This document shows positions 4,025 to 63,246 of a DNA stretch of 64,000 nucleotides, piece after piece (the stretch's first letter is position 1; the number at the start of each line of letters is the position of its first letter). Both the position numbers and the translations under genes were made by a program. The notes under the pieces are model-generated. The model was given only the letters and a program-made list of their open reading frames with translations, searched no databases and was not told the DNA's origin. The DNA is from Ostreococcus lucimarinus (taxonomy: Eukaryota): NCBI GenBank assembly GCA_000092065.1, contig CP000592.1. One strand, given 5' to 3'.

Positions 4025-7000
4025 TTAGACTTTGACTGAGCGCAGCGCGAGAAGTTCATTGAGACACGTGGTATGCGCTTCCGTGAGATTCAACACTTCT
4101 CTTTCAACATTTGAGATGTCTTTTTTAATCTCTCGCAGCTCACGCGCATTCTCCAGCTCTTGTACCTTGAGCTTGTCGCGTAAATCTTCTGTGCCTTGAC
4201 CATTATTCACAACCTTGTCTAAATCTTCCAGAACGATGAGCTTTCCAAACTTTCGGATCTGAGTCTCAGAGTATTTGCGTTGCAGACTCTGAAATTCTTT
4301 CGCCTTAGCGGAACGTTGCGCGATGAGCGAGGAGTGCTCTCGCTTTAACTCCTGCTGCTGACGTTTCAATTTTAAGACTTCTGCATCCCACTCTACGACT
4401 TTATTCTCAAGTTCTGCTAAGCGAGTCTTGGAGAAAATAATCATGTCGTCCATGTCGCCTTGACTCGTCTCGACGCAGCTCACCGGCAACACGAATGCAG
4501 TCCTGAGCCCGTTCAAACTTTGCTGCTTTACCTTCTCAAAAGCATCCGCATCTCTCTCGAGTACCCGTACGTTTTCCTCCAAACTTCGCAACTTTTTCAG
4601 TGCGGCATCGTGAATCTTTTTCTTCCCATCCAATGCCCGTTGTATTTCAGTTATTGCGTCCATGGCTTCGATTCTTTGCAAACGAAGATCGCACACGCGC
4701 TCGTAGACAGCACTGTCGCAACCTTTTGGGCAAGTGTCGCCATTTTCTTCGTCTGACGACGAATAGTACGAATCATCGTCAAAATCAGAGTCTAAGTCGG
4801 AATCGGAGTCACCTTTGTCGCTCTTTTGTTCGGTTTTATTGACGACGCGTTTGTGGAAAACTTTGAGCAATGCCGCTCGCGGGACGCCTGGAATCATGAA
4901 TTTGTCAAATGTCGCCTCGATTTCCGCTTTTACTCCGTTCTGCCCCTCTAATTTGGTCTGTTGATCGTTTACGGCCGTCTGGGCATTTTCTACCGCCGCA
5001 CGAGCGGTTTCGACCTCTTCCTTTGCTTGCCGTTGAGCATTTTGCATTTCGGTGTTCTTCACGTCATATTCAGGCATGACGCTCAGCTCGCGATGCACTA
5101 CAATACGAAAAAGTTCAATGACTTTACTTCGCGCGATGATATCTGCTTTTAGATGGCATAGCGAGATAAGATCTTCATCGGTGACAGCGTCCTTCGCATC
5201 GATGCAATCAAACTCTCGATTGAACCGGCTCTGGTTGCCGCGTAGTTGACCATCGACATATCTCAATTCGGAAAGTTTACCCTCCGTCGTTAATTTGTCT
5301 TCAGGTGGTACACGTGAATCCGGAACGCAACGCAATGGAAACCCATCGCCAAGATTGTCGCGTTTCAACGCTTCGCTGTCGTCTGTTTGGTCTTTCAAAG
5401 GCTCTGCCTTCTCCAATTTTCTCAACTCTTCGTTCCTCCGTAATCTTTCGAAGCGCCGTCGAGCCTCTGAACTCATTTCAGAGCCTTCGATGCTCTGTCT
5501 TTCGTGCGCATTTTCACTTATGCAAGTATTTTGCACATGAACGACACGCATCTCTTGTTCGCATTCATGAACTGTCGCCTCTGCGACCGTAGTTGTCTGC
5601 CAATCACCCTCGCTTCCAGCGCGCAACGCAAAAGATGAGCACGTCAAAGCTTCGCTAGATGAATGAATCATACGAGGAAGGGCCATTATTTTGTCGTAAT
5701 AACTTTTTTGCAGTTGATTTGAGACAGATTCAGCACACATAACTGAGCTTTGAAGCTTGTCGTGAGTCGCTTTTAACCAGTGTACTGAATCCTCGCGAAT
5801 TCGGCGCATTTGTGTATCGTCTACGAGAAGTTCTGCGCCAGAGATTCGCATCTCTCGAGGAAGTTTTGCATTTTCTTCAATGATGACATTGAATTCATCT
5901 CGACAGAGCGCCACCAAGCTCGAGAGTCGTATAAGTGCTGCCGCTTCTTCCTCGCTCAATTCCTTCGCGCGTTCTCGCTGCAGTACCTCTTCGATGGACG
6001 CGCACTGTGCGGAGAGTGTGTCGATCGCTTCGACTTCTGGATAGATGCACAGCGCCTCGTCGATTGAAGAGTGTGTGTTTGATGGAGAAGCATCGCTTAA
6101 CGCGTGTACTTCAAAAGATCCCGATTTACAGATTTTAACGCAGTAAGAATTATCATACGTTATCGCGCTGAAAGATTCATCAACGGCGTTCTTGGTTTCT
6201 ACATCGGTGGTAATACGAGGAGTGACATCGATTTCGTACGAATCTTTACGAGACTCACCCAAGTCACGATGGACGGCAAAGCAGTGCATCTCGTCCTCGA
6301 TTTGAGCACCAAAAATACTTTCACCATCCCAAAATATCTTCTTCGGGCGAGCACTCAGGCGTATGAAACCAATTGGCTCAAATTGCAACGTCGATGCGAA
6401 GGAAGATGAACTGAAAATAAACACAGTATTATTAGCAGCAGCGATTGCCAAATACTCACCATCAGAACTCCATGTGAACTGCTCGACGGCATGCGCGTGT
6501 GGCTTGAGCGCGAGAGCCAAGCGCCAAGAGGACGTGTTTCTCACGAGAACGCGAACGACACCATCGGCAAATCCAACGACGATACATCTCCCATCTTCAT
6601 TGACATTCAAAGGTACGTTAGTAAGTGCCGTCGCCGAACAGCTGAACCGACTTTTGTAGAGAAACGCACGGGATAAATAATCATAGCAGTGCACTTCTCC
6701 GATATTGTCGCAAGTGATCAAGTGAGTACTGTTCAGCGAAGTCTCGCATGCAGTGATGACACCACTGTGCGCAGAAACAACAGGACGCTCCATATCATCA
6801 TCGTCCAAAGAACACACTAACCCTCGCCCGCTGTCTTGAATGAATAACTTATTTTCAAGCGCGCAAATGTGGCGGATATTGGCTCCATCGATTGAGCGCT
6901 CTGAGATGGGTTTCATACAAACCACCCCTTTGCTTTGCGACGATATGACGCGACGAATCTCGTCAATATTCCATTCTCGAACCCACCCATCATCGCCCGC

Positions 7001-7798
7001 CGTGAGAATCACTGAACCGTTGTTGATATAAATCATCGTCTCGATCGAACCGCCGTGGCAGTCTTCATCGTCGCTCGACGCGTTTGCTCGCATTATTTTG
7101 TACTGAACGCGCCCATCGACCCAGATTAGTAGAGCGCCATACTCTGTGCTCGTCAAAATCATATCATTAAAGGGTAACTCCAACACGCACGTGATATTGG
7201 ACAGAGGTTCGCCGTTGAACTTTCCAAGAGTACCTTGTAACTTCAATCCAGTAAACGTCTTGACCATCTGCCAAAACTGAATGTGACCAGCGCCGTGAGT
7301 GATCATTCGCTCCGAGTTAGCGCCTAGGAAGGATAAGTCAAACACTTCTTGTCCATACGCTTTGGCACGAAGGACTGTCTTTGCTGTCTTCCAGTCCCAC
7401 AAAGTGAGCCAATAGTCTGGGAGCCCACTCACGCTCGCGAGAAGCTGTCCGTCTGGAGAAAATTTTCCAGTCGAGTAACACGCCGCGGCGCCGCCGTGAA
7501 TCGTGTTTACGAGCTCAAGTGAAGGGTAACTATATATTGATATTCGGGGCGCCGCACCATTCTCGCCGATCGCAATGTGCGTGCCATCTCCATCCACGGC
7601 GACCAAGCCGATATTGCCCCCCTCCGCGCTCCGCAGGTACGTCTGCCTTTGTGTTTTCACGTCTCGCAAGGTCAAGAGATTTCCAACAGTGTACGCCACG
7701 ACTGAATCGCGTACTCGAGTCAAGTTGCCCCGTCGCTTGAAATCAAATCCAAAGCTGCACGCCAGGCAACCATGCTCGAGAGACTTATTTTTAGCCAT
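4025..7798 (-). CDS. Cilia/flagella-associated WD-repeat plus coiled-coil protein (CFAP43/44/57-like)
   Basis: This is an uninterrupted 1257-aa ORF. The N-terminal half has WD/beta-propeller-type repeats (ISIYSYPSLE, YWLTLWDWKTAK, HGAGHIQFWQM). The C-terminal ~600 aa are heptad-rich coiled coil. Size and layout match axonemal CFAP WD proteins. The sequence is visibly AT-richer than its neighbours. Confidence 0.7.
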   Translation of the reverse strand: MAKNKSLEHGCLACSFGFDFKRRGNLTRVRDSVVAYTVGNLLTLRDVKTQRQTYLRSAEGGNIGLVAVDGDGTHIAIGENGAAPRISIYSYPSLELVNTIHGGAAACYSTGKFSPDGQLLASVSGLPDYWLTLWDWKTAKTVLRAKAYGQEVFDLSFLGANSERMITHGAGHIQFWQMVKTFTGLKLQGTLGKFNGEPLSNITCVLELPFNDMILTSTEYGALLIWVDGRVQYKIMRANASSDDEDCHGGSIETMIYINNGSVILTAGDDGWVREWNIDEIRRVISSQSKGVVCMKPISERSIDGANIRHICALENKLFIQDSGRGLVCSLDDDDMERPVVSAHSGVITACETSLNSTHLITCDNIGEVHCYDYLSRAFLYKSRFSCSATALTNVPLNVNEDGRCIVVGFADGVVRVLVRNTSSWRLALALKPHAHAVEQFTWSSDGEYLAIAAANNTVFIFSSSSFASTLQFEPIGFIRLSARPKKIFWDGESIFGAQIEDEMHCFAVHRDLGESRKDSYEIDVTPRITTDVETKNAVDESFSAITYDNSYCVKICKSGSFEVHALSDASPSNTHSSIDEALCIYPEVEAIDTLSAQCASIEEVLQRERAKELSEEEAAALIRLSSLVALCRDEFNVIIEENAKLPREMRISGAELLVDDTQMRRIREDSVHWLKATHDKLQSSVMCAESVSNQLQKSYYDKIMALPRMIHSSSEALTCSSFALRAGSEGDWQTTTVAEATVHECEQEMRVVHVQNTCISENAHERQSIEGSEMSSEARRRFERLRRNEELRKLEKAEPLKDQTDDSEALKRDNLGDGFPLRCVPDSRVPPEDKLTTEGKLSELRYVDGQLRGNQSRFNREFDCIDAKDAVTDEDLISLCHLKADIIARSKVIELFRIVVHRELSVMPEYDVKNTEMQNAQRQAKEEVETARAAVENAQTAVNDQQTKLEGQNGVKAEIEATFDKFMIPGVPRAALLKVFHKRVVNKTEQKSDKGDSDSDLDSDFDDDSYYSSSDEENGDTCPKGCDSAVYERVCDLRLQRIEAMDAITEIQRALDGKKKIHDAALKKLRSLEENVRVLERDADAFEKVKQQSLNGLRTAFVLPVSCVETSQGDMDDMIIFSKTRLAELENKVVEWDAEVLKLKRQQQELKREHSSLIAQRSAKAKEFQSLQRKYSETQIRKFGKLIVLEDLDKVVNNGQGTEDLRDKLKVQELENARELREIKKDISNVEREVLNLTEAHTTCLNELLALRSVKV

Positions 7799-7987: not shown

Positions 7988-9223
7988 TCACTTCCCCGAC
8001 ATTTCTGCGTTCAATTCAGCAAGCTTTTCTTCTTGTTCCAAAGCCTGCATGCCCCCGATCGCACCCTTGATGTCGCCGTCTAAGAAATTTTGAAGAGAGA
8101 AGTTAGCGCCGATGCGATGGTCCGACACGCGGCTATCTTTCCAGTTGTACGTTCTAATTTTTTCCGACCGAGACCCCGAGCCGACTTGCGATTTACGCTT
8201 GTCCGATACCGCTTTGCGCTGCTCTTCGAGCTGCAACTCAAATAATTTCGCGCGAAGAATTTGCATGGCACGAATGCGATTCTTCATTTGTGTACGTTCT
8301 TCCGTGCAGAACACGCGAATGCCGGTCGGCTTGTGCATCAGGTCGATAGCGGTTTCGACTTTGTTGACGTTTTGCCCACCCGCACCGCCGCTTCTGGCGG
8401 TGGAAATATCGAGGTCATTGTCGTCAATCTTCACCTCGACTTCGTCGACTTCAGGCATCACCGCGACCGTGGCCGTGGAAGTTTGAATGCGTCCTTGAGT
8501 TTCCGTCGCCGGCACGCGCTGCACGCGATGCACACCGGCTTCCCACTTGAGACTGCTGTACACGTCGTCGCCCTTTATCTCCACGACGATTTCCTTATAC
8601 CCGCCGGCGTCCGCCGGGTTGTTCGTCACGACCGACGTTTGCCATCCCTCGCGCTCGGCGAATCGCATATACATTCGATATAAATCCCCAGCCCAAATAC
8701 CAGCCTCATCCCCGCCAGTACCGGCGCGAATCTCGAGCATGATGTTCTTCTCGTCGAGCGGGTCCTTCGGCAGCAGCGCCAACGTCATGGTCTCCACCAG
8801 CGCATCACTCTCCGTCGTCAGCGCATCGATCTCTTCCTTCGCCATCGCCACCATCTCATCATCCCCAGCCGCATCCTTCGCCATCGCGCGCGCCTCGCTA
8901 ATCTCTTTCATGCACTCCTTGTACCGCGCGTACTGCTCCACCACGCTCGTCAGCTCCCCGAGCGCCTTGCTCAGCTTTTGAAACTCCTTCGGATCGCCCG
9001 TCACGCTCGGATCCGCCATGCGCTCGCTGATCTCGCCGTGCGTCCGCGTCGTCGCCTCGAGTTTTTGCACCAGAAACTCCGGAATGTCCACCGCGCGCGT
9101 TCGCACCCCTCGCCGCGTCGTCGTCGTCCCGCGCGCCGGCGCTCGTCCACCGTCCCGAGCGTTTTTCGCGCGCGCGTTCGCGCGCGACGCCGCGTTCGTC
9201 GCCGGCGACGCGCGCGCCATCAT
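7988..9223 (-). CDS. prfA: Organellar peptide chain release factor 1 (RF1-type)
   Basis: It carries the PxT anticodon tripeptide ([10 protein letters not shown]) and the GGQ motif ([11 protein letters not shown]). An R/A/T-rich presequence follows MMARASP (ATG 9223). The ORF is over-extended to 9688. Confidence 0.9.
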
Positions 9224-9557
9224 GTCGTCCGCGCGTCGTCGCGCGTTCGATCGAGCGAGCGATCGATCGCGCGCGCGCGTCCGCGAGTGTCGCGGCGCCG
9301 TCGCCCGACGCGCCCTGAGCGCCAAAACCCCGAGCCGTCGCCGTCCCCGACGCGCGCCGTCCTCGAACCCGAGGTCGGGTTCGGGCGATTCGGACGATTC
9401 GGACGGTTGGTTTCGGGCGCGCCGGTGGTTGATGGTTGACCGCGCGCGCGACGCGCGAGAGGACCGCGCGCGGACGACGACGACGGACGCGACGACGACG
9501 CGCGACGACGACGCGAGAAACGACGACGACCGACGGTAAAAGCGCGCGATCGACGAC

Positions 9558-10658
9558 ATGACGCCCGCGGTGACGCGCGAGGACGCGCGCGAGAAAGTCC
9601 CCACGGTGTCGCTCGAACTGTACGCGAAAGATTTCGAAAAGTTTGTCCACGACCTGGGAGAGGCGTACGAGCGATACGGATTCGTCATCTTGGAAAATCA
9701 TGGGATCGATCTGGAACTCATCGAACGCGCGATGGAACGCTCGAAGGCGTTCTTTGCGTGCGATGAGGAATGTAAGAAGAAGTACACGCTGCGCGGGTTG
9801 GGCGGCGCGCGCGGGTACACGGCGTTCGGAGTGGAGACGGCGAAGGGAGCGAACGCGCCTGGTGCGTGAAGGCGATGCGAAAAGTGATACTTTTTTGTTT
9901 TGATGCGTCGCGCTATAGCGCGTGTGATGGATTCGACGACGCGATTCGTTTGACTGACGCGAAGGATAACGTCGCCTCTCGCGCGCGCAGATTTGAAAGA
10001 GTTTTGGCACCTCGGGCGAGACTTGCCGGCGGGCCATAAGTACGAGTCGACGATGCCGCCGAATGTGGATGACGTGGTGGAAGTCGAAGGGTTTAGCGAA
10101 GTGAATAAGCAAATCTTCAACGCTCTAGATGAGCTCGGGAATTGCGTGCTCGAGGCGCTGGCGGTGCATCTGGAACAACCGCGCGAGTATTTCGCAGATA
10201 AGACGAACGAAGGCAACAGTATTTTGCGTATCATTCACTATCCACCAATTCCGCCTGATGCTGCGGGGCGCGTGCGCGCTGGTGCGCACGAGGATATCAA
10301 TCTCATCACGCTCCTGCTCGGCGCCGACGAGGGTGGTTTGCAACTCTTGGGAAAGGATGGAGAGTGGCTCGAAGTCAACCCGCCTCCCGGATGCGTGACG
10401 TGCAACATCGGTGACATGCTGCAACGCCTGTCGAATCACAAGCTTCCTTCGACGACGCACCGTGTCGTGAATCCTCCCGCGGAACGGGCGCACATTCCTC
10501 GATATTCCATGCCATTCTTTTTACATCCAAATCCAGACTTCGTCATCAAAACGCTGGAGTCGTGCATTTCGGATCAGTATCCCAATCGCTATCCAGAGCC
10601 CATTAGCTCTGATGAATACTTGCAGCAACGCCTTCGAGAGATTAAACTCAAATCATGA
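9558..10658 (+). CDS. 2-oxoglutarate/Fe(II)-dependent oxygenase (two exons: 9558-9861 and 9991-10658)
   Basis: The HxD...H iron triad is present ([18 protein letters not shown]). Intron 9862-9990 has a GTGCGT donor, a CTGAC branch and a CAG acceptor. It joins ...GANAP|DLKEFWHLG in frame (972 nt total). Confidence 0.8.
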
Positions 10659-56410: not shown

Positions 56411-57670
56411 TCACACTTTGTTTTGCTCCTCCTCGAGAAAGTAAATCACGGGTTTGAGCTCGAACGGAAGGGGAGAAGTATTGTCGTACGCGGGCAGATC
56501 AACTGGACGTTGCGACGGCGGTAGCGACGCGTACGCCGACGCCTTGGTTCGCTTCGTGTACTCGTCTCGCAACTCCTTGACGGTTTTCAGCGCGTAAAGC
56601 AGCATCGCGTACGCTCGAGGCGGCGACTCGGGCGAGCGAGATGAACGCTTGAGCTTGGACAAAATCACTCGAAAGCAAGCCTCCATGCGATCCCACGCCT
56701 CGGTGAGCTCGGCGATTTTTCTCGTCCAATACGTATCGTGCCACGCCGCGTGTGCTTCGCCTTGCAGGTGAAACATTCTAATCCATTGAAATTCAACCTC
56801 GCGATGGACGTCGGCTAAGAACTGTATCTGTTTCGCATCCAAAGGTTTATTCTCGCGCTCTAAGTCTGGTACAATTGCGAGCGCATCGATACACCGCCTT
56901 TTGATGTACTGGAACGTATCCTTGGCCACCACGGCGACTCGATGTGTCGAAGAATATCTCGCACTCGAGCCGGTGAGCACGGCGTGATGGTGAGTGGCGT
57001 TGAACTCACCACACATGTAATACGTCGCTTTATCCTCCAAAGGCACGCAAAGCACCTCGCACTCCGCGTTCAACGCCCTCAGCGCCACTCGCCAGTCTTT
57101 TCTCTCTGGCGCCTCGTATGTGTGATACACCGCCACGGTGGAGTTTTCTCGCAACGACGAATCGCTGTGCCAACTCACCGACGTCGTCCCGAGATCGAAC
57201 TTCTCCTCATTCCGTAGCTCTATTTCGCTCTCACCCTCTGTTTCCATGTAATTAATCAGCGTCACGTTGTATTCGCACTCACTCTCCGCGAACGCTCCGC
57301 CGAGCTTTTCGCATCGCTCTCGCGCGCTCCTCGTCAGCGTCTCGTTCAACCGTCTCACCACTTCGTACGCCTCCCGTCCGCGCCACGGTTGCGCAAACAG
57401 GCGTAACTTCTGATAATGATACGTCATTCCGTCCTCACCGAGCAGGCAGCGCCGCACGTACGTCGTGGACACTTTATTTCCGGCGGAAACGACGTCGTGC
57501 GTGAATTCGCCTCGGCTGCGCATGTCGTCGAACGCGCGTTCGACGTCGTCGTGAAGCGACGCGGGAAGCACCGAGGGCGCGTCCACGACGAAACCGCGGT
57601 AGTGCGCTCGATGGACGCGCGCGAACGGTTCGCCGTCCTCGGGTTCGAGCACGGAGGATGACGGCGACAT
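56411..57670 (-). CDS. FTO: FTO-like 2-oxoglutarate/Fe(II) dioxygenase (AlkB-related nucleic-acid demethylase homologue)
   Basis: The product is collinear with human FTO. Matches include YNVTLINYM, VSWHSDSSLRENSTVAVYHTY (HxD), NATHHHAVLTGSSARYSSTHRVA (His plus 2OG-binding Arg), HREVEFQWIRMFHLQG and the C-terminal SPLPFELKPV. Confidence 0.9.
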   Translation of the reverse strand: MSPSSSVLEPEDGEPFARVHRAHYRGFVVDAPSVLPASLHDDVERAFDDMRSRGEFTHDVVSAGNKVSTTYVRRCLLGEDGMTYHYQKLRLFAQPWRGREAYEVVRRLNETLTRSARERCEKLGGAFAESECEYNVTLINYMETEGESEIELRNEEKFDLGTTSVSWHSDSSLRENSTVAVYHTYEAPERKDWRVALRALNAECEVLCVPLEDKATYYMCGEFNATHHHAVLTGSSARYSSTHRVAVVAKDTFQYIKRRCIDALAIVPDLERENKPLDAKQIQFLADVHREVEFQWIRMFHLQGEAHAAWHDTYWTRKIAELTEAWDRMEACFRVILSKLKRSSRSPESPPRAYAMLLYALKTVKELRDEYTKRTKASAYASLPPSQRPVDLPAYDNTSPLPFELKPVIYFLEEEQNKV

Positions 57671-57876: not shown

Positions 57877-58780
57877 TCACATGGCGGCGAAGAGCGTGGC
57901 GCCGAGTCGGGCGACGCCCATGGTGAAGTGCTTCGTGAACTCGGCAGCCTTGAAGGCGGCGGCGTGCTTACGCATCATGTAAAGGTTCATCAAGTTGTCC
58001 ACGGCGTGGAACTTGGCCACGGTGCCGAGAGATTCCTCGGGAAGGATGGTGAACATCTTCATTGTGCCCATCCAGCGAAGAAAGCCGATGGTGGCGGTCC
58101 AGTGGATTGCGATATAATCGGTGGCTTTGATCTTGGACGAGAACCAGCCCGCGACGGTGGCGTCGCCGAAGTGAAGCATGAGCATGTAGTACAACTCCAT
58201 AAGCAAAGAGGCGGCGATGATCTTTTGCTTGACAGTCTTGGAATCCGTGATAAAGTTGCGCATCGGAGTAAGACGCGTCGTACCGCGTTGCGACTCGGCG
58301 AGCAAGATAAACGTGAGCAAGCCCACCTTGGATCCCATCGCGAGCTCCTTGGTCACTTGAAGACCACCGATGCGCGACTTGGCGCCGTGGCACGACATAA
58401 CGGTGATGCGAGAGAAGCATCCGATCATCTGCGCGAATGTGAATCGGTGCAGCGTCGGCTCGGATTGCGTCCTCGCGACGTACACGAGGGCGACCATGGA
58501 CGTTAAGAGCATGATTCCGGTCGCGTGCATCATAAAGTCAGAGATAACGGTGCTCTTAAGACCGTAGTACTTCATCATCGGCTGCGCGAACGCTGTGGCA
58601 TTTAAAATCGCGTATACTCCGTCAGTTCACACCGCGCAACGGTAATTCAGTCAATTCTCCGAACGCATTCGCGCGGTCCGTCGACGCACTCGGAAGTTCG
58701 GGCATGAACTGCAGCCCGTAGCCGAAGCCCGTGGCGGCGGTGAATAACAGGGCGTTTTTTTGTGAAATCATAGTGGCCAT
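57877..58780 (-). CDS. Multi-pass membrane protein of unknown function, with candidate exons 58633-58780 and 57877-58592
   Basis: There are about 6-7 hydrophobic segments (GIMLLTSMVALVYVA, KVGLLTFILLAE, IIAASLLMELYYMLMLHF, YIAIHWTATIGFLRW). A 40-nt GT-AG interval with an internal CTGAC joins an upstream ORF in frame. If that interval is not spliced, the alternative start is ATG 58578. Confidence 0.6.
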
Positions 58781-59024: not shown

Positions 59025-60293
59025 TTACTCGATGGCGCAACCGTCGGCGTCTTTCCCGTCGATAACGTTGCGCCACCGGCGATAATGTAAACCGAGCTTA
59101 TCATAAGCTACGGGATGGGCCCAAACTCGGGCACCACGCTGCATGCGGTCTTGTTGACCCGTGACTAGACGTAAATCCTCGCCGAGAACTTGGTTCGCCA
59201 TCTCGGTCCAGATGTATTCGATGCCCGGGACGTATTGGGCCCACGAGGCAAAATCGAGGGACATACGGTAGAGCAAACGCGTGTGACCTGGAGTGCTAGG
59301 CAAGCACACGTGGAGCTGATGCAAGTGCTTCTCGCACTCCAACGCGCTGACACCTTCCTTAAACTGCGCACCCTTACCCACTGCGCCCGCTTGCGCCAAG
59401 CCAATGTGGCTGTCAACCATGCACGGCGCCAAAAACTTCATGTCGATGGGGTACGGTTTCCAGCTCCCTTCGCTGCGACCGTTGGCGAGAAAGTTACCCA
59501 TATCGTGCCACCCGTCGCCGTCTTTTCTTAATTTGCGAGACGCAAACTTGACCATGTTTGGCACGCCCCAACCCTTGGCAAAGGTGCCGGTGTGCGTAAA
59601 CGGCGCGTGCGCCAAATCGAGCAAGTTCTCCATCAACAACCCGTGTTCGACGGGAACGTCCTCGATGATGAGTTCTGCGTGAATGGTGTACCCTTCTGGC
59701 GCCGCAAAGTGCGACGGAAGCTCCTCCGTGGGTCCACAATTCATCGAAGGCCACACCATGACGAGCCCGTCCCTCGTCCCCGTCGCCAGCATCGTACGCG
59801 GACTCTTCTTACTCTCGCATTCGTACTGCCCTTCCGCAACCTTGCGCACCACCCACGTCTCATCTAGCAAAACAACCTCGACTTCTTCGTCGATTTCCTT
59901 AAACTTGCTCTCAAACATCACCGGATACCAAAACTCCCGAATCTTACTCTCCTCCCGCGGCGTCTCCAACGAGCTCTCGTCGCAAAACACCCGACGCATC
60001 CCCGGTCGCACCTTTCGACTCACCGCCGCCGCGCTCGTCGCGACGCTCTCCACTTCCGTCTTCACCACGAATCTCTCATCCGCGACGACGCGCGTATCGT
60101 TCGAATCCGTCACCGCTCGCGTCCGCGTCGTCCTCGCCGTCGATCGCGTCCGTACCTTCCCGTCGTCTCTCCCTCGCCCGACCCTCTCTCTTCGCGCCCT
60201 TTCTCCCGCGCGCGCGCCCGTCGACGTCGGCGCTCGCATCGCGCGCATCTTCACCGTCCCTCGTCCCCGTTCGCTCGTCCGCGCGCGTCGCAC
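59025..60293 (-). CDS. CAO: Chlorophyllide a oxygenase-like protein retaining the mononuclear-iron domain but lacking Rieske [2Fe-2S] ligands
   Basis: There is a strong collinear match to plant CAO. Matching segments are EFWYPV, VEHGLLMENLLDLAHAPFTHTGTFAKGW, PYPIDMKF, HLHQLHVCLPS..TRLLYRMSLDFA, QVLGEDLRLV.GQQ.RM and PVAYDKLG..YR.WRN. The CxH...CxxH Rieske segment is replaced by ECESKKSPRTMLATG. The start is ATG 60293, 60248 or 60239. Confidence 0.88.
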   Translation of the reverse strand: MRRARTSERGRGTVKMRAMRAPTSTGARAGERARRERVGRGRDDGKVRTRSTARTTRTRAVTDSNDTRVVADERFVVKTEVESVATSAAAVSRKVRPGMRRVFCDESSLETPREESKIREFWYPVMFESKFKEIDEEVEVVLLDETWVVRKVAEGQYECESKKSPRTMLATGTRDGLVMVWPSMNCGPTEELPSHFAAPEGYTIHAELIIEDVPVEHGLLMENLLDLAHAPFTHTGTFAKGWGVPNMVKFASRKLRKDGDGWHDMGNFLANGRSEGSWKPYPIDMKFLAPCMVDSHIGLAQAGAVGKGAQFKEGVSALECEKHLHQLHVCLPSTPGHTRLLYRMSLDFASWAQYVPGIEYIWTEMANQVLGEDLRLVTGQQDRMQRGARVWAHPVAYDKLGLHYRRWRNVIDGKDADGCAIE

Positions 60294-60586
60294 GACGCGA
60301 ATGCGTTCGCTCGATTCGTTTGGATACGCTATCCACGATCGCGACGCGCGCGACGCGAAACGCGCGCGCGCGTCGCGTCGTCGCGCGTCGCGCGTCGGCT
60401 ATCCCGAGCGGAGGCGTCTTCGGGCGACCGCGCGTCGACCGGGCGCGCGCGCGGGCGTGCGCGACGGCGTGTGACGCGGCGCGCGCGCGCGTATCCCGGT
60501 ATCCCGGTTGGCGCGCTGCGCTGGCGCCGCGCGAGGTGTGATTTCGTGCATTTTTGGATTTTTGATTTCGCATCCGTCCGTCTGCG

Positions 60587-61591
60587 CTACGCCGCGGTCG
60601 ACGACGAGGAATAATTAATCGCGCTGTCGCCGACGGCGTAATCGCCGCGAAGATCAGTCGGGGCGATCGAACCGTCGCGAGGGGGCACGGTCAGGTCGAC
60701 GCATCGAACCTGCCCGAGCTCGAACGGGTAGTCGAGGTGGTGGCGGGAGAGGTCGGTGCCGTTCAACGCGGCGGCGAAGACGCTGAGGGTGTCCTGATGG
60801 GAGACGATGATGATGTCTTCGCCGTAATACGTGGCTTCGAGACGCGTGAACGCCTCGAGGGCGCGTCGATAAATGTCTAAGCACGACTCCACGCTCGCCG
60901 ACGGTTGCAACGAACTCGGCACCGGAGGCGGCGTCGAGGAGGGGTCGTCGAAATCGTTCTTCCAAACGTCAACCCACGCCTCTTGCGAGCCGAAATCCAA
61001 CGCACCCATCTTTCTCGGATCTAATAACCCGCTAAACTCGGTGCGCATCTGCGAAAACAACAGCCCGATCTCTTCCCTGAGCACCAACGCGCTTTGAAAC
61101 GACCGCTGAAAATTCGACGTGTACAACCACGCCGGCGCGCCGTCGAAATCCCTTAAAATAGTCTTCGCCGCCTCTTGCATCTGCGCTCGGCCTCTCGCCG
61201 TCAGCCCGAACGTGGTGTCGTACTTGAAGCTCGGGTTACTCAAAATCATCCCCCCGTTCCGCACGTCCAGCACCGATTCTCCGTGCCTCACGAAGAAGTA
61301 TCTGTTGTGGAGCCGACTCGGTAAATCTATGAACGCCCGCGCCGGCGCCGCGCCGATCTCGCCCGCCCCGACCGCGCCCACGAGCGCGATCCCTCTCCCC
61401 AGCGCTCCTCGCCTGCTCACGCCGTCCTCGCGCGTCGTCGCGCCGCTTCGCGCCCCCTCGCCGTCTCGCGATGTCCCGCGCGCGCGCGCGCGTCGACGTC
61501 CATCCGCGCGTCCTCGCGACGTCTTTCGCGCGCGTCGCGGCGTCGACGGACGCGCGATCGTCGGAGACGAGTTCGCACGCGCGCACGGCAT
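60587..61591 (-). CDS. Histidine phosphatase (phosphoglycerate mutase family) with presequence and a twin-arginine-like signal
   Basis: The RHG motif is YFFVRHGESVLD and a later IIVSHQDTL supplies the second His. The N-terminus reads ...VSRRGALGRGIALVGAVGAGEIGAAPARAF. ATG 61591 is used (ORF open to 61765). Confidence 0.72.
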   Translation of the reverse strand: MPCARANSSPTIARPSTPRRARKTSRGRADGRRRARARGTSRDGEGARSGATTREDGVSRRGALGRGIALVGAVGAGEIGAAPARAFIDLPSRLHNRYFFVRHGESVLDVRNGGMILSNPSFKYDTTFGLTARGRAQMQEAAKTILRDFDGAPAWLYTSNFQRSFQSALVLREEIGLLFSQMRTEFSGLLDPRKMGALDFGSQEAWVDVWKNDFDDPSSTPPPVPSSLQPSASVESCLDIYRRALEAFTRLEATYYGEDIIIVSHQDTLSVFAAALNGTDLSRHHLDYPFELGQVRCVDLTVPPRDGSIAPTDLRGDYAVGDSAINYSSSSTAA

Positions 61592-61772
61592 CGCGCGCGT
61601 CGACGCGTGACGCCCGTCGTCGCCGTTCGCGCGCGCATCGTGCGCCGACACGCGCCAGCCATCGCAACCGTCACGAGGTCCGAGTTTAGCGCTACATGCC
61701 GAGTCTCGCACCGTCGTATGGGTAAACAGTCGGAACCGTCGGACGGCGGCGCGTCGACGGCACACGGCGACG

Positions 61773-63246
61773 ATGCGCGCGCGACGACGACGCGACGGCG
61801 ACGACGGCGACGACGAGGACGCGCGCGATGATGACGTCGATCGCGACGACGACGACGACGCGTCGACCGACGACGACGACGACGGCGAACGCGGGATGGA
61901 TTCGGACGACGAACTCGAGCGCGAGATGGCGGCGCTGGAATCGGTGAAACGCGAGCGCGCGGGCGCGCGGGACGGCGCGACGGCGAGGAAGAGTTACGCG
62001 AACAATGAAAAGGGGTTGGAGGCGAGCCTGGAAGGTGCGACGCGACGCGACGCGCGGCGGATGAGGGAAGGATGGGATGGGACGGGAACGGGACGGAGGC
62101 GCGCGCGGGGTTGTCGAGACCGAACGCGAAGACTGACGACGACGGTGATGGAACCGCGCGGTGCGGCGTAGATTTTAAATGGACGCATAAGGCGAAATGG
62201 ATCGATCACATGACGATCACGGGGACGAATGCGGAGCGCGTGGTGGATGTGAACGACGACTTGACGAGGGAAACGTTTTTTTACGAGCGAGCGTTGGAGA
62301 GCGCGAACGAGTGCGTGCGACGGTTGAAAGATCTCGGAGTTCCCGTGCGAAGACCGGATGATTACTACGCTGAAATGGTGAAGAGCGATGAGCACATGAA
62401 GCGCGTGCGAAGTGAGTTATTGTTCGAGCAACAACAGTTGGAGATTCGCGAGGAGCGCAGGAAAGCGCGCGAATCGAAAAAGTACGGTAAACAAGTGCAA
62501 GCCGAGAAGATCAAGCAACGAACGCTCGACAAGAAATCGCAAATTAAAAGTTTGGATAAGTGGAGGAAGCAGCGCCAGAAGAGTGGGTTCGCGGACGACG
62601 GCAAGGCGCCGTTCGAGGGCGCGGGTGGCGACGCCAAGCGCAAGCGCGAGGATCGGGATTCCAAATACGGCTTCGGTGGACGTAAAAAGGTACGTGCGAT
62701 GCTCTCGTCGAAACGCGCGCGAAGATGTTAGTATTTCCGTCAATTTTTCGTTTTTTTCTCATTTCGGTGGACCCTGGGGTGCTGCCCGCATCCCAGGATG
62801 TCAACGCGACGAGGCGTCGAAACTCCACGACGTATATCTCTACGTAAACACCGTATATAGACTCTTCGGTCGTAGGCTCTTCTCACGAAGACGCCTCCCG
62901 AAAGAGCAGGACCATATTCCATTGCCTAGGCGGGCGCGACGTCGTCGCAATTACGTCACGGGACAGACCATGGGCCTGTTATCACAGAGCCTCGCTCGCT
63001 CGCGTTCGCGTCCTCGGCGGAGAACTTTCTTCGCTCAAACATTCGACTGACGGCCGCGCTCATCATTTTTCATCATCGTAGACGGCGAAACGAAACGATA
63101 AATTCAGCGCGAACGACATGTCCGACTACAAGCCTTCTTCGTTCGATAAGGACATCAGAAGCGGCAAGACGGGCGGTTTATACGTCAAAGGTCGCGGCGG
63201 CGGTCGCGGCGGCGGTCGCGGCGGCGGTCGCGGCGGTCGTCGATGA
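61773..63246 (+). CDS. EBP2: rRNA-processing protein EBP2 (three exons: 61773-62034, 62172-62689 and 63082-63246)
   Basis: The Ebp2 core is DDLTRETFFYERALESANECVRRLKDLGVPVRRPDDYYAEMVKSDEHMKRVR..L. It is followed by KYGKQVQAEK and FGGRKK. Introns 62035-62171 (GTGCGA...CTGAC...TAG) and 62690-63081 (GTACGT...CTGAC...TAG) join in frame (945 nt total). Exon 3 ends in RGG repeats. Confidence 0.85.

Follow-up and report, generated by a model that had tools for sequence, protein, structure and literature searches.

The gene examined here lies on the minus strand at 59025-60293 of a 64,000-nucleotide stretch of the Ostreococcus lucimarinus genome (contig CP000592.1; the whole stretch is called the window below), and its product resembles chlorophyllide a oxygenase (CAO). 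To our knowledge, CAO is the sole enzyme making chlorophyll b. In the sea, picoalgae of the Mamiellales contribute strongly to primary production, and their antennae are unusually rich in chlorophyll b. A first-pass annotation, made from the window alone, had described the gene as a CAO homologue without Rieske cluster ligands and as half of a split CAO. In this study, the gene model, the two metal sites, the family placement, the partner gene and the neighbourhood were analysed computationally.

Gene model and features of the locus

The open reading frame (ORF) at 59025..60293 is uninterrupted and comprises 422 amino acids (aa) when counted from a GTG by the bacterial ORF rule. The first in-frame ATG is at 60248, which gives a 407-aa product that matches the database protein P0127 residue for residue; 209 contigs carry P0127, one of them an NCBI record of 540,025 bp. 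On all metagenome contigs examined, the gene was again called at 407 aa, with at least 24 calls starting at the ATG, and the exact protein was found on hundreds of contigs. Because the protein read from the ATG is identical to P0127, the 15 codons at 60249-60293 are most likely a 5' leader rather than coding sequence. The ORF reported initially is thus real, with a continuous minus-strand frame and a product identical to a database protein. Residue numbers below refer to the 407-aa protein counted from the ATG at 60248. The features of the gene, with the evidence for each, are as follows (CDS, coding sequence; AF2, AlphaFold2; pLDDT, predicted local distance difference test score).

59025..60248, minus strand: CDS of the putative iron-only CAO subunit (407 aa plus stop), single exon; ORF, identity to P0127, end-to-end collinearity with orthologues
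60249..60293, minus strand: in-frame GTG extension, probably 5' leader; arises solely from the bacterial start-codon rule
59952..60248, minus strand: presequence-like N-terminal region, residues 1-99, rich in R, A, T and V; composition, low pLDDT, low identity
59739..59951, minus strand: cluster-less Rieske-domain remnant, residues 100-170, predicted compact beta domain; alignment and AF2
59766..59831, minus strand: ligand-free replacement stretch GQYECESKKSPRTMLATGTRDG, residues 140-161; site of CxH...CxxH in CAO
59049..59738, minus strand: catalytic domain (mononuclear-iron, PaO/VanA_C-type), residues 171-400; Pfam, identity, Foldseek
59592..59630, minus strand: iron motif E207-N-L-L-D211-L-A-H214-A-P-F-T-H219; DdmC alignment, conservation
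59175..59177, minus strand: D358 in GEDLRLV, presumed third iron ligand; conservation pattern

The N-terminal region is presumed to be a chloroplast targeting presequence. Its pLDDT was below 50 over most of residues 1-70 (segments 1-6 and 8-70), and the identity of residues 1-99 to homologues was 9-45% over the alignment and 22-45% among the orthologues that likewise carry only the iron site (iron-only halves).

Loss of the Rieske ligands

Pfam analysis of the window protein gave PaO (1.7e-18) and VanA_C (1.2e-13), and no match to the Rieske domain (PF00355) was obtained even at E<=0.1. The interval between the anchors W132 and D160 has 28 residues with one Cys and no His. The same interval in full-length CAOs (n=12) spans 71-76 residues and contains C-x-H-x17-18-C-x-x-H in 12/12; the net loss is therefore approximately 43-48 residues, all four Rieske ligands included. 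On either side of the loss, the remnant can be aligned with CAO: EFWYPV...WVV corresponds to the N-terminal strands of its Rieske domain and DGLVMVWP to the C-terminal ones. Among iron-only halves of the Mamiellales clade, the length of the W132-D160 loop ranges from 27 to 69 residues. Since two Cys and two His are required for a Rieske cluster, the W132-D160 segment would be unable to bind one, and the replacement of CxH...CxxH by the short ligand-free stretch GQYECESKKSPRTMLATGTRDG, as noticed initially, was confirmed. With the Rieske ligands absent from the same polypeptide, the window protein is, judged from its sequence, a subunit and not a complete self-sufficient CAO.

The first-pass annotation had named a Rieske motif in an unrecognised upstream exon as a finding that would overturn its reading. 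No CxH-x14-20-CxxH motif was found in any of the six frames of the whole 64-kb window, so that the Rieske partner lies outside the window as had been stated, and the 352 nt preceding the ATG were free of CxH and CxxH in all frames, the gap between the ATG and the stop codon of the upstream gene being 338 nt. Furthermore, the deletion sits within a continuous reading frame with aligned CAO sequence on either side, and the transcript-derived Micromonas orthologues P0013/P0016 (MMETSP), which are flagged 'type:complete', show an equally Rieske-less architecture. A hidden Rieske exon is excluded by these alignments and motif searches, because the deletion is internal and in frame, the 338-nt gap and the window are free of the motif, and the Micromonas transcripts agree.

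Iron site

The mononuclear-iron motif ENLLDLAHAPFTHTGTF is present at residues 207-223 (window 59580-59630). E207, D211, H214, H219 and D358 were invariant over 96 aligned homologues, in agreement with the initial observation that this motif is kept. A profile search against the PDB aligned it to NLMDLGHAQYVH of dicamba O-demethylase DdmC, with D211 at the Asp of DdmC NLMDLGH. In Rieske oxygenases, a conserved Asp bridges the Rieske His of the neighbouring subunit to an iron His (PMC9939785). From this alignment, we infer that H214 and H219 would be the His ligands of the iron and D211 the inter-subunit bridging Asp. D358 was invariant in iron-only halves, full-length CAOs and outgroups, and was E or Q in all of the paralogues that carry only the Rieske site (Rieske-only halves); from this conservation pattern, D358 is presumed to be the third iron ligand, the carboxylate of the facial triad.

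Relationship to CAO and other PaO-domain oxygenases

In a homology search over 5.8 billion proteins, the closest ~54 database matches were all without PF00355. Full-length proteins named CAO came next at E~1e-80 (Marchantia, Volvox, Nephroselmis, Palmophyllum and others), and all named full-length best matches were CAO. The BLASTP identity to named CAOs was 41-48%; over the 304 columns of the tree alignment, the identity was 51-57% to named CAOs versus 29-39% to the nearest non-CAO proteins with a PaO domain. The alignment was collinear from EFWYPV to the C-terminus with the full-length CAOs of Marchantia, Volvox, Chlamydomonas, Nephroselmis, Palmophyllum, Pyramimonas, Cymbomonas, Selaginella and others, as had been claimed for plant CAO. 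The proposed comparison with Chlamydomonas CAO and Micromonas pusilla likewise gave a collinear alignment, in which the deletion of the iron-only half was common to M. pusilla. The catalytic domain was 90% identical to that of O. tauri and 61-66% identical to those of Chlamydomonas and Marchantia CAO. Rieske-less relatives retrieved by cluster look-up were O. tauri XP_003082289.2 (82-83% identity), Bathycoccus prasinos and M. pusilla.

A neighbour-joining (NJ) tree was the only tree constructed. The window protein was placed in a clade of Mamiellales iron-only halves with 99% bootstrap support, which was nested among named CAOs, and it grouped inside this clade with three other Ostreococcus lineages. 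The other outcome that had been named as contradicting the CAO reading, a phylogenetic position with PAO, TIC55 or PTC52, was not observed in this tree with unnamed outgroups. Gray et al. in 2004 are said to have described a C-terminal CxxC motif and a membrane anchor as marks of PAO, TIC55 and PTC52. No CxxC motif and no hydrophobic segment at a Kyte-Doolittle hydropathy (KD) >= 1.6 were found in the window protein; with the Rieske ligands, all three features of this LLS1 family are absent from it. The Pfam PaO domain is not discriminating, as it is also matched by Chlamydomonas CAO, and NCBIfam contained no family for the window protein.

RefSeq names both O. tauri halves (P0226 = XP_003082289.2; P0581 = XP_003080336.2) 'Pheophorbide a oxygenase'. 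Because the Rieske-only half has been given the same name, the name is apparently derived from the PaO domain and is misleading for both halves.

Predicted folds

The AF2 model of the window protein had a predicted template modelling score (pTM) of 0.72 and the two-domain fold of an alpha subunit, namely, an N-terminal Rieske beta domain and a C-terminal helix-grip catalytic domain. The Rieske remnant was predicted as a compact six-stranded beta domain with pLDDT of 95-98 in ten-residue blocks over residues 101-170, and the pLDDT stayed at 92-98 up to residue 200. The model of the partner (described below) contained a confident Rieske domain and a helix-grip domain that was still folded. In Foldseek searches, the models of both halves matched whole alpha subunits of alpha3 Rieske oxygenases over about 340-370 columns; matches of the window protein included 7qwt, 3gke, 6icq and 4nb9, over about 360-420 columns. 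A single-sequence search of the PDB with the window protein gave no match at E<=1, and no CAO or PAO structure was found among the PDB entries in the profile search.

Two insertions were observed in the catalytic domain, LRKDGDGWHDMGNFLANGRSE (59475-59543, residues ~236-258) and GKGAQF (59361-59378, residues ~291-296). Both were present in 4/4 named Mamiellales iron-only halves aligned and absent from full-length CAOs and from chlorarachniophyte iron-only halves. AF2 confidence was low at both sites. They are candidate heteromer-specific surface or interface elements.

The Rieske-only partner and the origin of the pair

The first-pass annotation had proposed a search of the rest of the genome for a Rieske-only partner. 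We looked among the proteins of the representative search for those with the Rieske motif and without the iron motif. The first candidate, P0362, was an orphan from an unknown organism and was rejected as the partner, being useful solely as a bridge to the Ostreococcus partners. A Rieske-only paralogue was then found, for the genus, in O. lucimarinus (XP_001418699.1, on a 783,246-bp record), together with paralogues in O. tauri (XP_003080336.2), O. mediterraneus, Bathycoccus (XP_007514845.1) and two unnamed Ostreococcus-like lineages. These proteins have an intact C-x-H...C-x-x-H; at the position of H214 they carry E, Q or G, the H219 stretch is missing, and E or Q stands in place of D358. The O. 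tauri halves are on separate chromosomes (records of 542,657 bp for the iron-only half and 770,246 bp for the Rieske-only half), and those of O. lucimarinus and RCC809 are gene models of chromosome or scaffold 12 (Fe-binding) and 7 (Rieske) (bioRxiv 10.1101/2025.02.10.637544). The partner is missing from the window because the halves are encoded on different chromosomes.

The two halves were compared with the Chlamydomonas and Marchantia CAOs domain by domain. The iron-only half showed 61-66% identity in the catalytic domain and 29-33% in the Rieske remnant, and the Rieske-only half showed 55-58% in the Rieske domain and 29-32% in the C-terminal domain. Within Ostreococcus, this vestigial C-terminal domain is 74-81% conserved, and its matches to Pfam PaO were sub-threshold to marginal. 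Because each half still contains, as a folded vestige, the domain that is functional in the other, the pair is, on the evidence of these alignments and predicted models, a product of duplication and reciprocal degeneration and not of clean fission. The initial description as half of a split CAO therefore holds for the iron-only partner, but the division is not a clean one, as a cluster-less Rieske remnant is retained.

Assignment and alternative explanations

These results suggest that the gene very probably encodes the mononuclear-iron (catalytic) subunit of a two-gene CAO in Ostreococcus. The identification as the iron-only partner agrees with the position in the 99% clade and with the orthology to the iron subunit of M. 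pusilla. The purified CAO of Micromonas (MpCAO), which consists of two polypeptides, converts chlorophyllide a to b with VanB/NADPH (PMC9615114), and both gene products are required for chlorophyll b synthesis in Micromonas according to Kunugi et al. (2013) as represented in later papers (PMC9615114; bioRxiv 10.1101/2025.02.10.637544). The transfer of the Micromonas activity results to Ostreococcus rests on orthology. A heterodimeric CAO has been reported for 7/7 Mamiellophyceae species, and the O. lucimarinus pair is listed there as 'Fe-binding domain' and 'Rieske domain' (bioRxiv 10.1101/2025.02.10.637544), in line with the earlier statement that CAO is split in Mamiellales.

Some observations weigh against this assignment. 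The node uniting the iron-only halves and the full-length CAOs had an NJ bootstrap of 57%, with the Rieske-only halves outside on long branches, and the outgroups of the tree were unnamed non-CAO PaO-domain proteins and not curated PAO, TIC55 and PTC52. Furthermore, the pLDDT was ~50-60 over residues 211-260, which cover the iron motif and a Mamiellales-specific insertion.

The loss of an essential cofactor site would also be expected of a decaying, non-functional CAO paralogue, a duplication relic in a cell whose chlorophyll b is made by another enzyme, and the variable length of the replaced loop (27 to 69 residues) would fit such decay. However, the reading frame is uninterrupted, identity in the catalytic domain is 90% to O. 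tauri and 72-78% to Bathycoccus and Micromonas, the iron ligands and the bridging Asp are all invariant, and hundreds of metagenome contigs encode exactly this protein. Among the Mamiellales, no full-length CAO was found, all close matches being without PF00355, and the heterodimeric CAO of all seven species in the preprint (bioRxiv 10.1101/2025.02.10.637544), as well as the reported need for both Micromonas halves, argue in the same direction; we regard a relic as scarcely credible. An active enzyme fed directly by ferredoxin or by another Rieske protein, without the Rieske-only paralogue, has a precedent in NdmC, an oxygenase subunit without a Rieske domain that relies on the one carried by the reductase NdmD (PMC10380055). 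Against this, all Mamiellales examined have also kept the Rieske-only paralogue, and its vestigial catalytic domain is predicted to be folded, is conserved and appears suited to an alpha-subunit assembly. D211, the Asp that would bridge to the Rieske His of a neighbouring subunit, is invariant, and both gene products are reported to be needed in Micromonas; such a direct supply is accordingly improbable to a high degree.

An oxygenase of the PAO/TIC55/PTC52 (LLS1-family) type, or another PaO-domain oxygenase with a different substrate, is suggested by the Pfam PaO match and by the name pheophorbide a oxygenase of the O. tauri orthologue XP_003082289.2. The domain, however, is common to Chlamydomonas CAO, and RefSeq has given the name to the Rieske-only half as well, which points to a domain-derived name. 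The named full-length best matches are all CAO, the identity of 51-57% to named CAOs stands against 29-39% to the nearest non-CAO PaO proteins, and the CxxC motif and the hydrophobic C-terminal segment are absent, so we consider this explanation very unlikely. A gene-model artefact, in which a missed exon or an assembly gap conceals a complete CAO, might be considered because the ORF was called by bacterial rules on a eukaryotic genome. But the deletion is internal to a continuous ORF with CAO sequence aligned on both sides, neither the six frames of the 64 kb nor the 338-nt gap before the gene contain a Rieske motif, and the identical architecture is shared by Micromonas transcripts and by independent contigs of many different samples, which leaves this explanation with a negligible probability.

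Proposed origin, reaction and assembly

For the two-gene CAO, the following course may be proposed. An ancestral single-gene CAO would have been duplicated in the Mamiellophyceae lineage, and the copies would have degenerated reciprocally. The copy in the window would have kept the substrate and iron domain and lost the ~45-residue cluster-binding part, leaving a folded beta-domain stump; in the paralogous copy, on another chromosome, the [2Fe-2S] Rieske domain would have been preserved and the three iron ligands would all have disappeared. In the reaction, ferredoxin or a reductase would reduce the [2Fe-2S] cluster of the partner, and the electron would travel through D211 to the iron at H214, H219 and D358. 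The iron site would then activate O2 and oxidise the C7 methyl group of chlorophyllide a to a formyl group in two steps to form chlorophyllide b.

In Rieske oxygenases, electrons pass from the Rieske cluster to the iron of the neighbouring subunit over an Asp-bridged interface (PMC9939785). Because the transfer is between subunits, a Rieske-only and an iron-only subunit could together rebuild one productive path in a putative heteromer. A heterodimer was proposed first for the split CAO in the literature, and a more canonical assembly was suggested later. Since both halves retain a complete foldable two-domain alpha-subunit architecture, a canonical head-to-tail Rieske-oxygenase ring might be formed instead of a simple heterodimer, although we consider this rather unlikely. 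A productive interface would arise solely where a Rieske-only half is followed by an iron-only half; a head-to-tail trimer would therefore have at most one such interface per ring, and thus a maximum of one active site per trimer. If the ring is true, the resulting throttling or the subunit stoichiometry might take over the role of the N-terminal degron by which chlorophyll b synthesis is limited in plants, and the insertions at ~236-258 and ~291-296 would be heteromer-specific interface elements. The CAO of Mamiellophyceae has been reported to be without the N-terminal degron (bioRxiv 10.1101/2025.02.10.637544).

Comparison with known systems

The arrangement is already known, from Micromonas since 2013 and from Ostreococcus and Bathycoccus in the 2025 preprint. 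Table S1 of the latter lists Fe-binding and Rieske pairs for O. lucimarinus, RCC809, Bathycoccus and others, and its text names O. tauri (bioRxiv 10.1101/2025.02.10.637544). The window protein may be its O. lucimarinus 'Fe-binding domain' entry, jgi Ost9901_3|5015, a chromosome-12 model (bioRxiv 10.1101/2025.02.10.637544). What is added here is a confirmed gene model, a corrected RefSeq name and the documentation, in each half, of a folded vestige of the other domain. For the two Micromonas products, the abstract of Kunugi 2013 reportedly gives an assignment of MpCAO1 and MpCAO2 that is the reverse of the one in the preprint, and the numbering is not used in this study. In the main text of the preprint, MpCAO1 has the iron motif and MpCAO2 the Rieske cluster (bioRxiv 10.1101/2025.02.10.637544).

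The iron subunit of M. pusilla is orthologous to the window protein (57% identity overall and 68-78% in the catalytic domain). In both, CxH...CxxH has been lost, the iron motif is intact and the two lineage-specific insertions are present, but the W132-D160 loop of M. pusilla has 51 residues compared with 28. O. tauri XP_003082289.2 is the same gene in the same genus. Canonical CAO (Chlamydomonas, Arabidopsis, Marchantia, Prochlorothrix) has the identical iron motif ENLLDLAHAPFTHT and the identical Asp of GEDLRLV, with a catalytic domain 61-66% identical and a reaction presumed to be the same; unlike it, the window protein is without the four Rieske ligands, ~43-48 residues and the N-terminal regulatory region located ahead of the catalytic domain in full-length CAOs.

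The N7-demethylase NdmCDE of Pseudomonas putida CBB5 resembles the pair in that the catalytic subunit NdmC has no cluster of its own and the Rieske domain is on another polypeptide (PMC10380055). However, that Rieske domain is fused to the reductase NdmD, the glutathione S-transferase (GST)-like NdmE is needed, and the proteins are not close in sequence; the donor of the window protein would be its own degenerate paralogue. Among solved structures, the closest are those of DdmC and further alpha3 Rieske oxygenases (NdmA, GxtA/SxtT, CarAa and KshA) (Foldseek E ~3e-10 over about 370 columns; profile search E = 8e-22, with the iron motif aligned to that of DdmC), but they are homotrimers with both metal centres in each subunit, and the identity is ~14%. 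The split CAO would be a natural Rieske oxygenase rebuilt from two complementary half-dead paralogues, and may be of use both in enzyme engineering and in the study of inter-subunit electron transfer.

Split CAOs have also been reported in Chloropicon, Caulerpa and Bigelowiella (bioRxiv 10.1101/2025.02.10.637544). In this study, Rieske-less CAO halves were observed in the chlorarachniophytes Lotharella and Amorphochlora (P0098, P0117), with another deletion boundary and without the Mamiellales insertions, and orphan Rieske-only halves of unknown origin were also found (P0371, P0362 and P0399). The chlorarachniophyte and orphan halves fit the proposal of the 2025 preprint that split CAO arose more than once.

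Neighbouring genes and other features of the window

The neighbours on the same strand had been described as an unknown multi-pass membrane protein and a histidine phosphatase with a twin-arginine-like signal, in a neighbourhood that may or may not be meaningful. The former, at 57877-58578 (minus strand), is a hydrophobic protein of 233 aa for which no Pfam or NCBIfam match was obtained. The absence of a family match agrees with the description; with one strong and two weaker hydrophobic segments, a multi-pass topology is plausible but weakly supported. The protein may be a genus-restricted orphan. The latter, at 60587-61765 (minus strand), is indeed a His_Phos_1 protein (2.3e-16) with SRRGAL, a hydrophobic stretch and ARA. 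Its N-terminal region SRRGALGRGIALVGAVGAGEIGAAPARA, consisting of a twin-arginine, a hydrophobic stretch and AxA, looks like a thylakoid-lumen twin-arginine translocation (Tat) signal behind a transit peptide. Translation of this protein probably begins with the ATG of residue 59 in the GTG ORF or further downstream, and the gene calls in metagenomes range over 264-357 aa. FTO homologues in marine algae have been reported previously. One is encoded beyond the 233-aa protein, at 56411-57670 (minus strand); it is a 419-aa FTO demethylase homologue (Pfam FTO_NTD 2.7e-86 and FTO_CTD 4.8e-66), and its position is conserved in an O. tauri-like contig. The genes on either side of the CAO gene in four lineages are as follows.

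Window lineage: upstream, His_Phos_1 gene; downstream, 233-aa protein and then FTO homologue
O. tauri-like contig (L014): upstream, divergent CofH-like radical-SAM gene; downstream, 231-aa protein (54% identical to the 233-aa protein) and FTO homologue
Bathycoccus contig (L005): upstream, divergent CofH-like radical-SAM gene; downstream, Myb gene, with a 183-aa ORF beyond that has no similarity to the 233-aa protein
Micromonas-like contig (L013): upstream, divergent CofH-like radical-SAM gene; downstream, Na/Pi cotransporter, with a 224-aa ORF beyond that has no significant similarity

The His_Phos_1 gene adjoins the CAO gene in the window lineage only, and the 233-aa protein and the FTO homologue follow it only within Ostreococcus. 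Because the adjacent genes differ among the Ostreococcus, Bathycoccus and Micromonas-like loci, the idea of a functional neighbourhood was rejected; the arrangement is ordinary local collinearity, and the neighbours are not conserved partners. A local rearrangement was observed at ~60250-61800, where a His_Phos_1/Ebp2 block stands in place of the CofH-like gene of the other three lineages.

Elsewhere in the window, the GC content was 0.475-0.50 at 4025-7798 (minus strand) compared with ~0.6 in the rest. This patch, considered at 4-8 kb as an unusual feature, coincides with the gene for a 1257-aa WD40-repeat protein and was dismissed as an ordinary gene of this kind. The WD40-repeat gene is followed by a gene for a PCRF/RF-1 peptide-chain release factor at 7988-9688.

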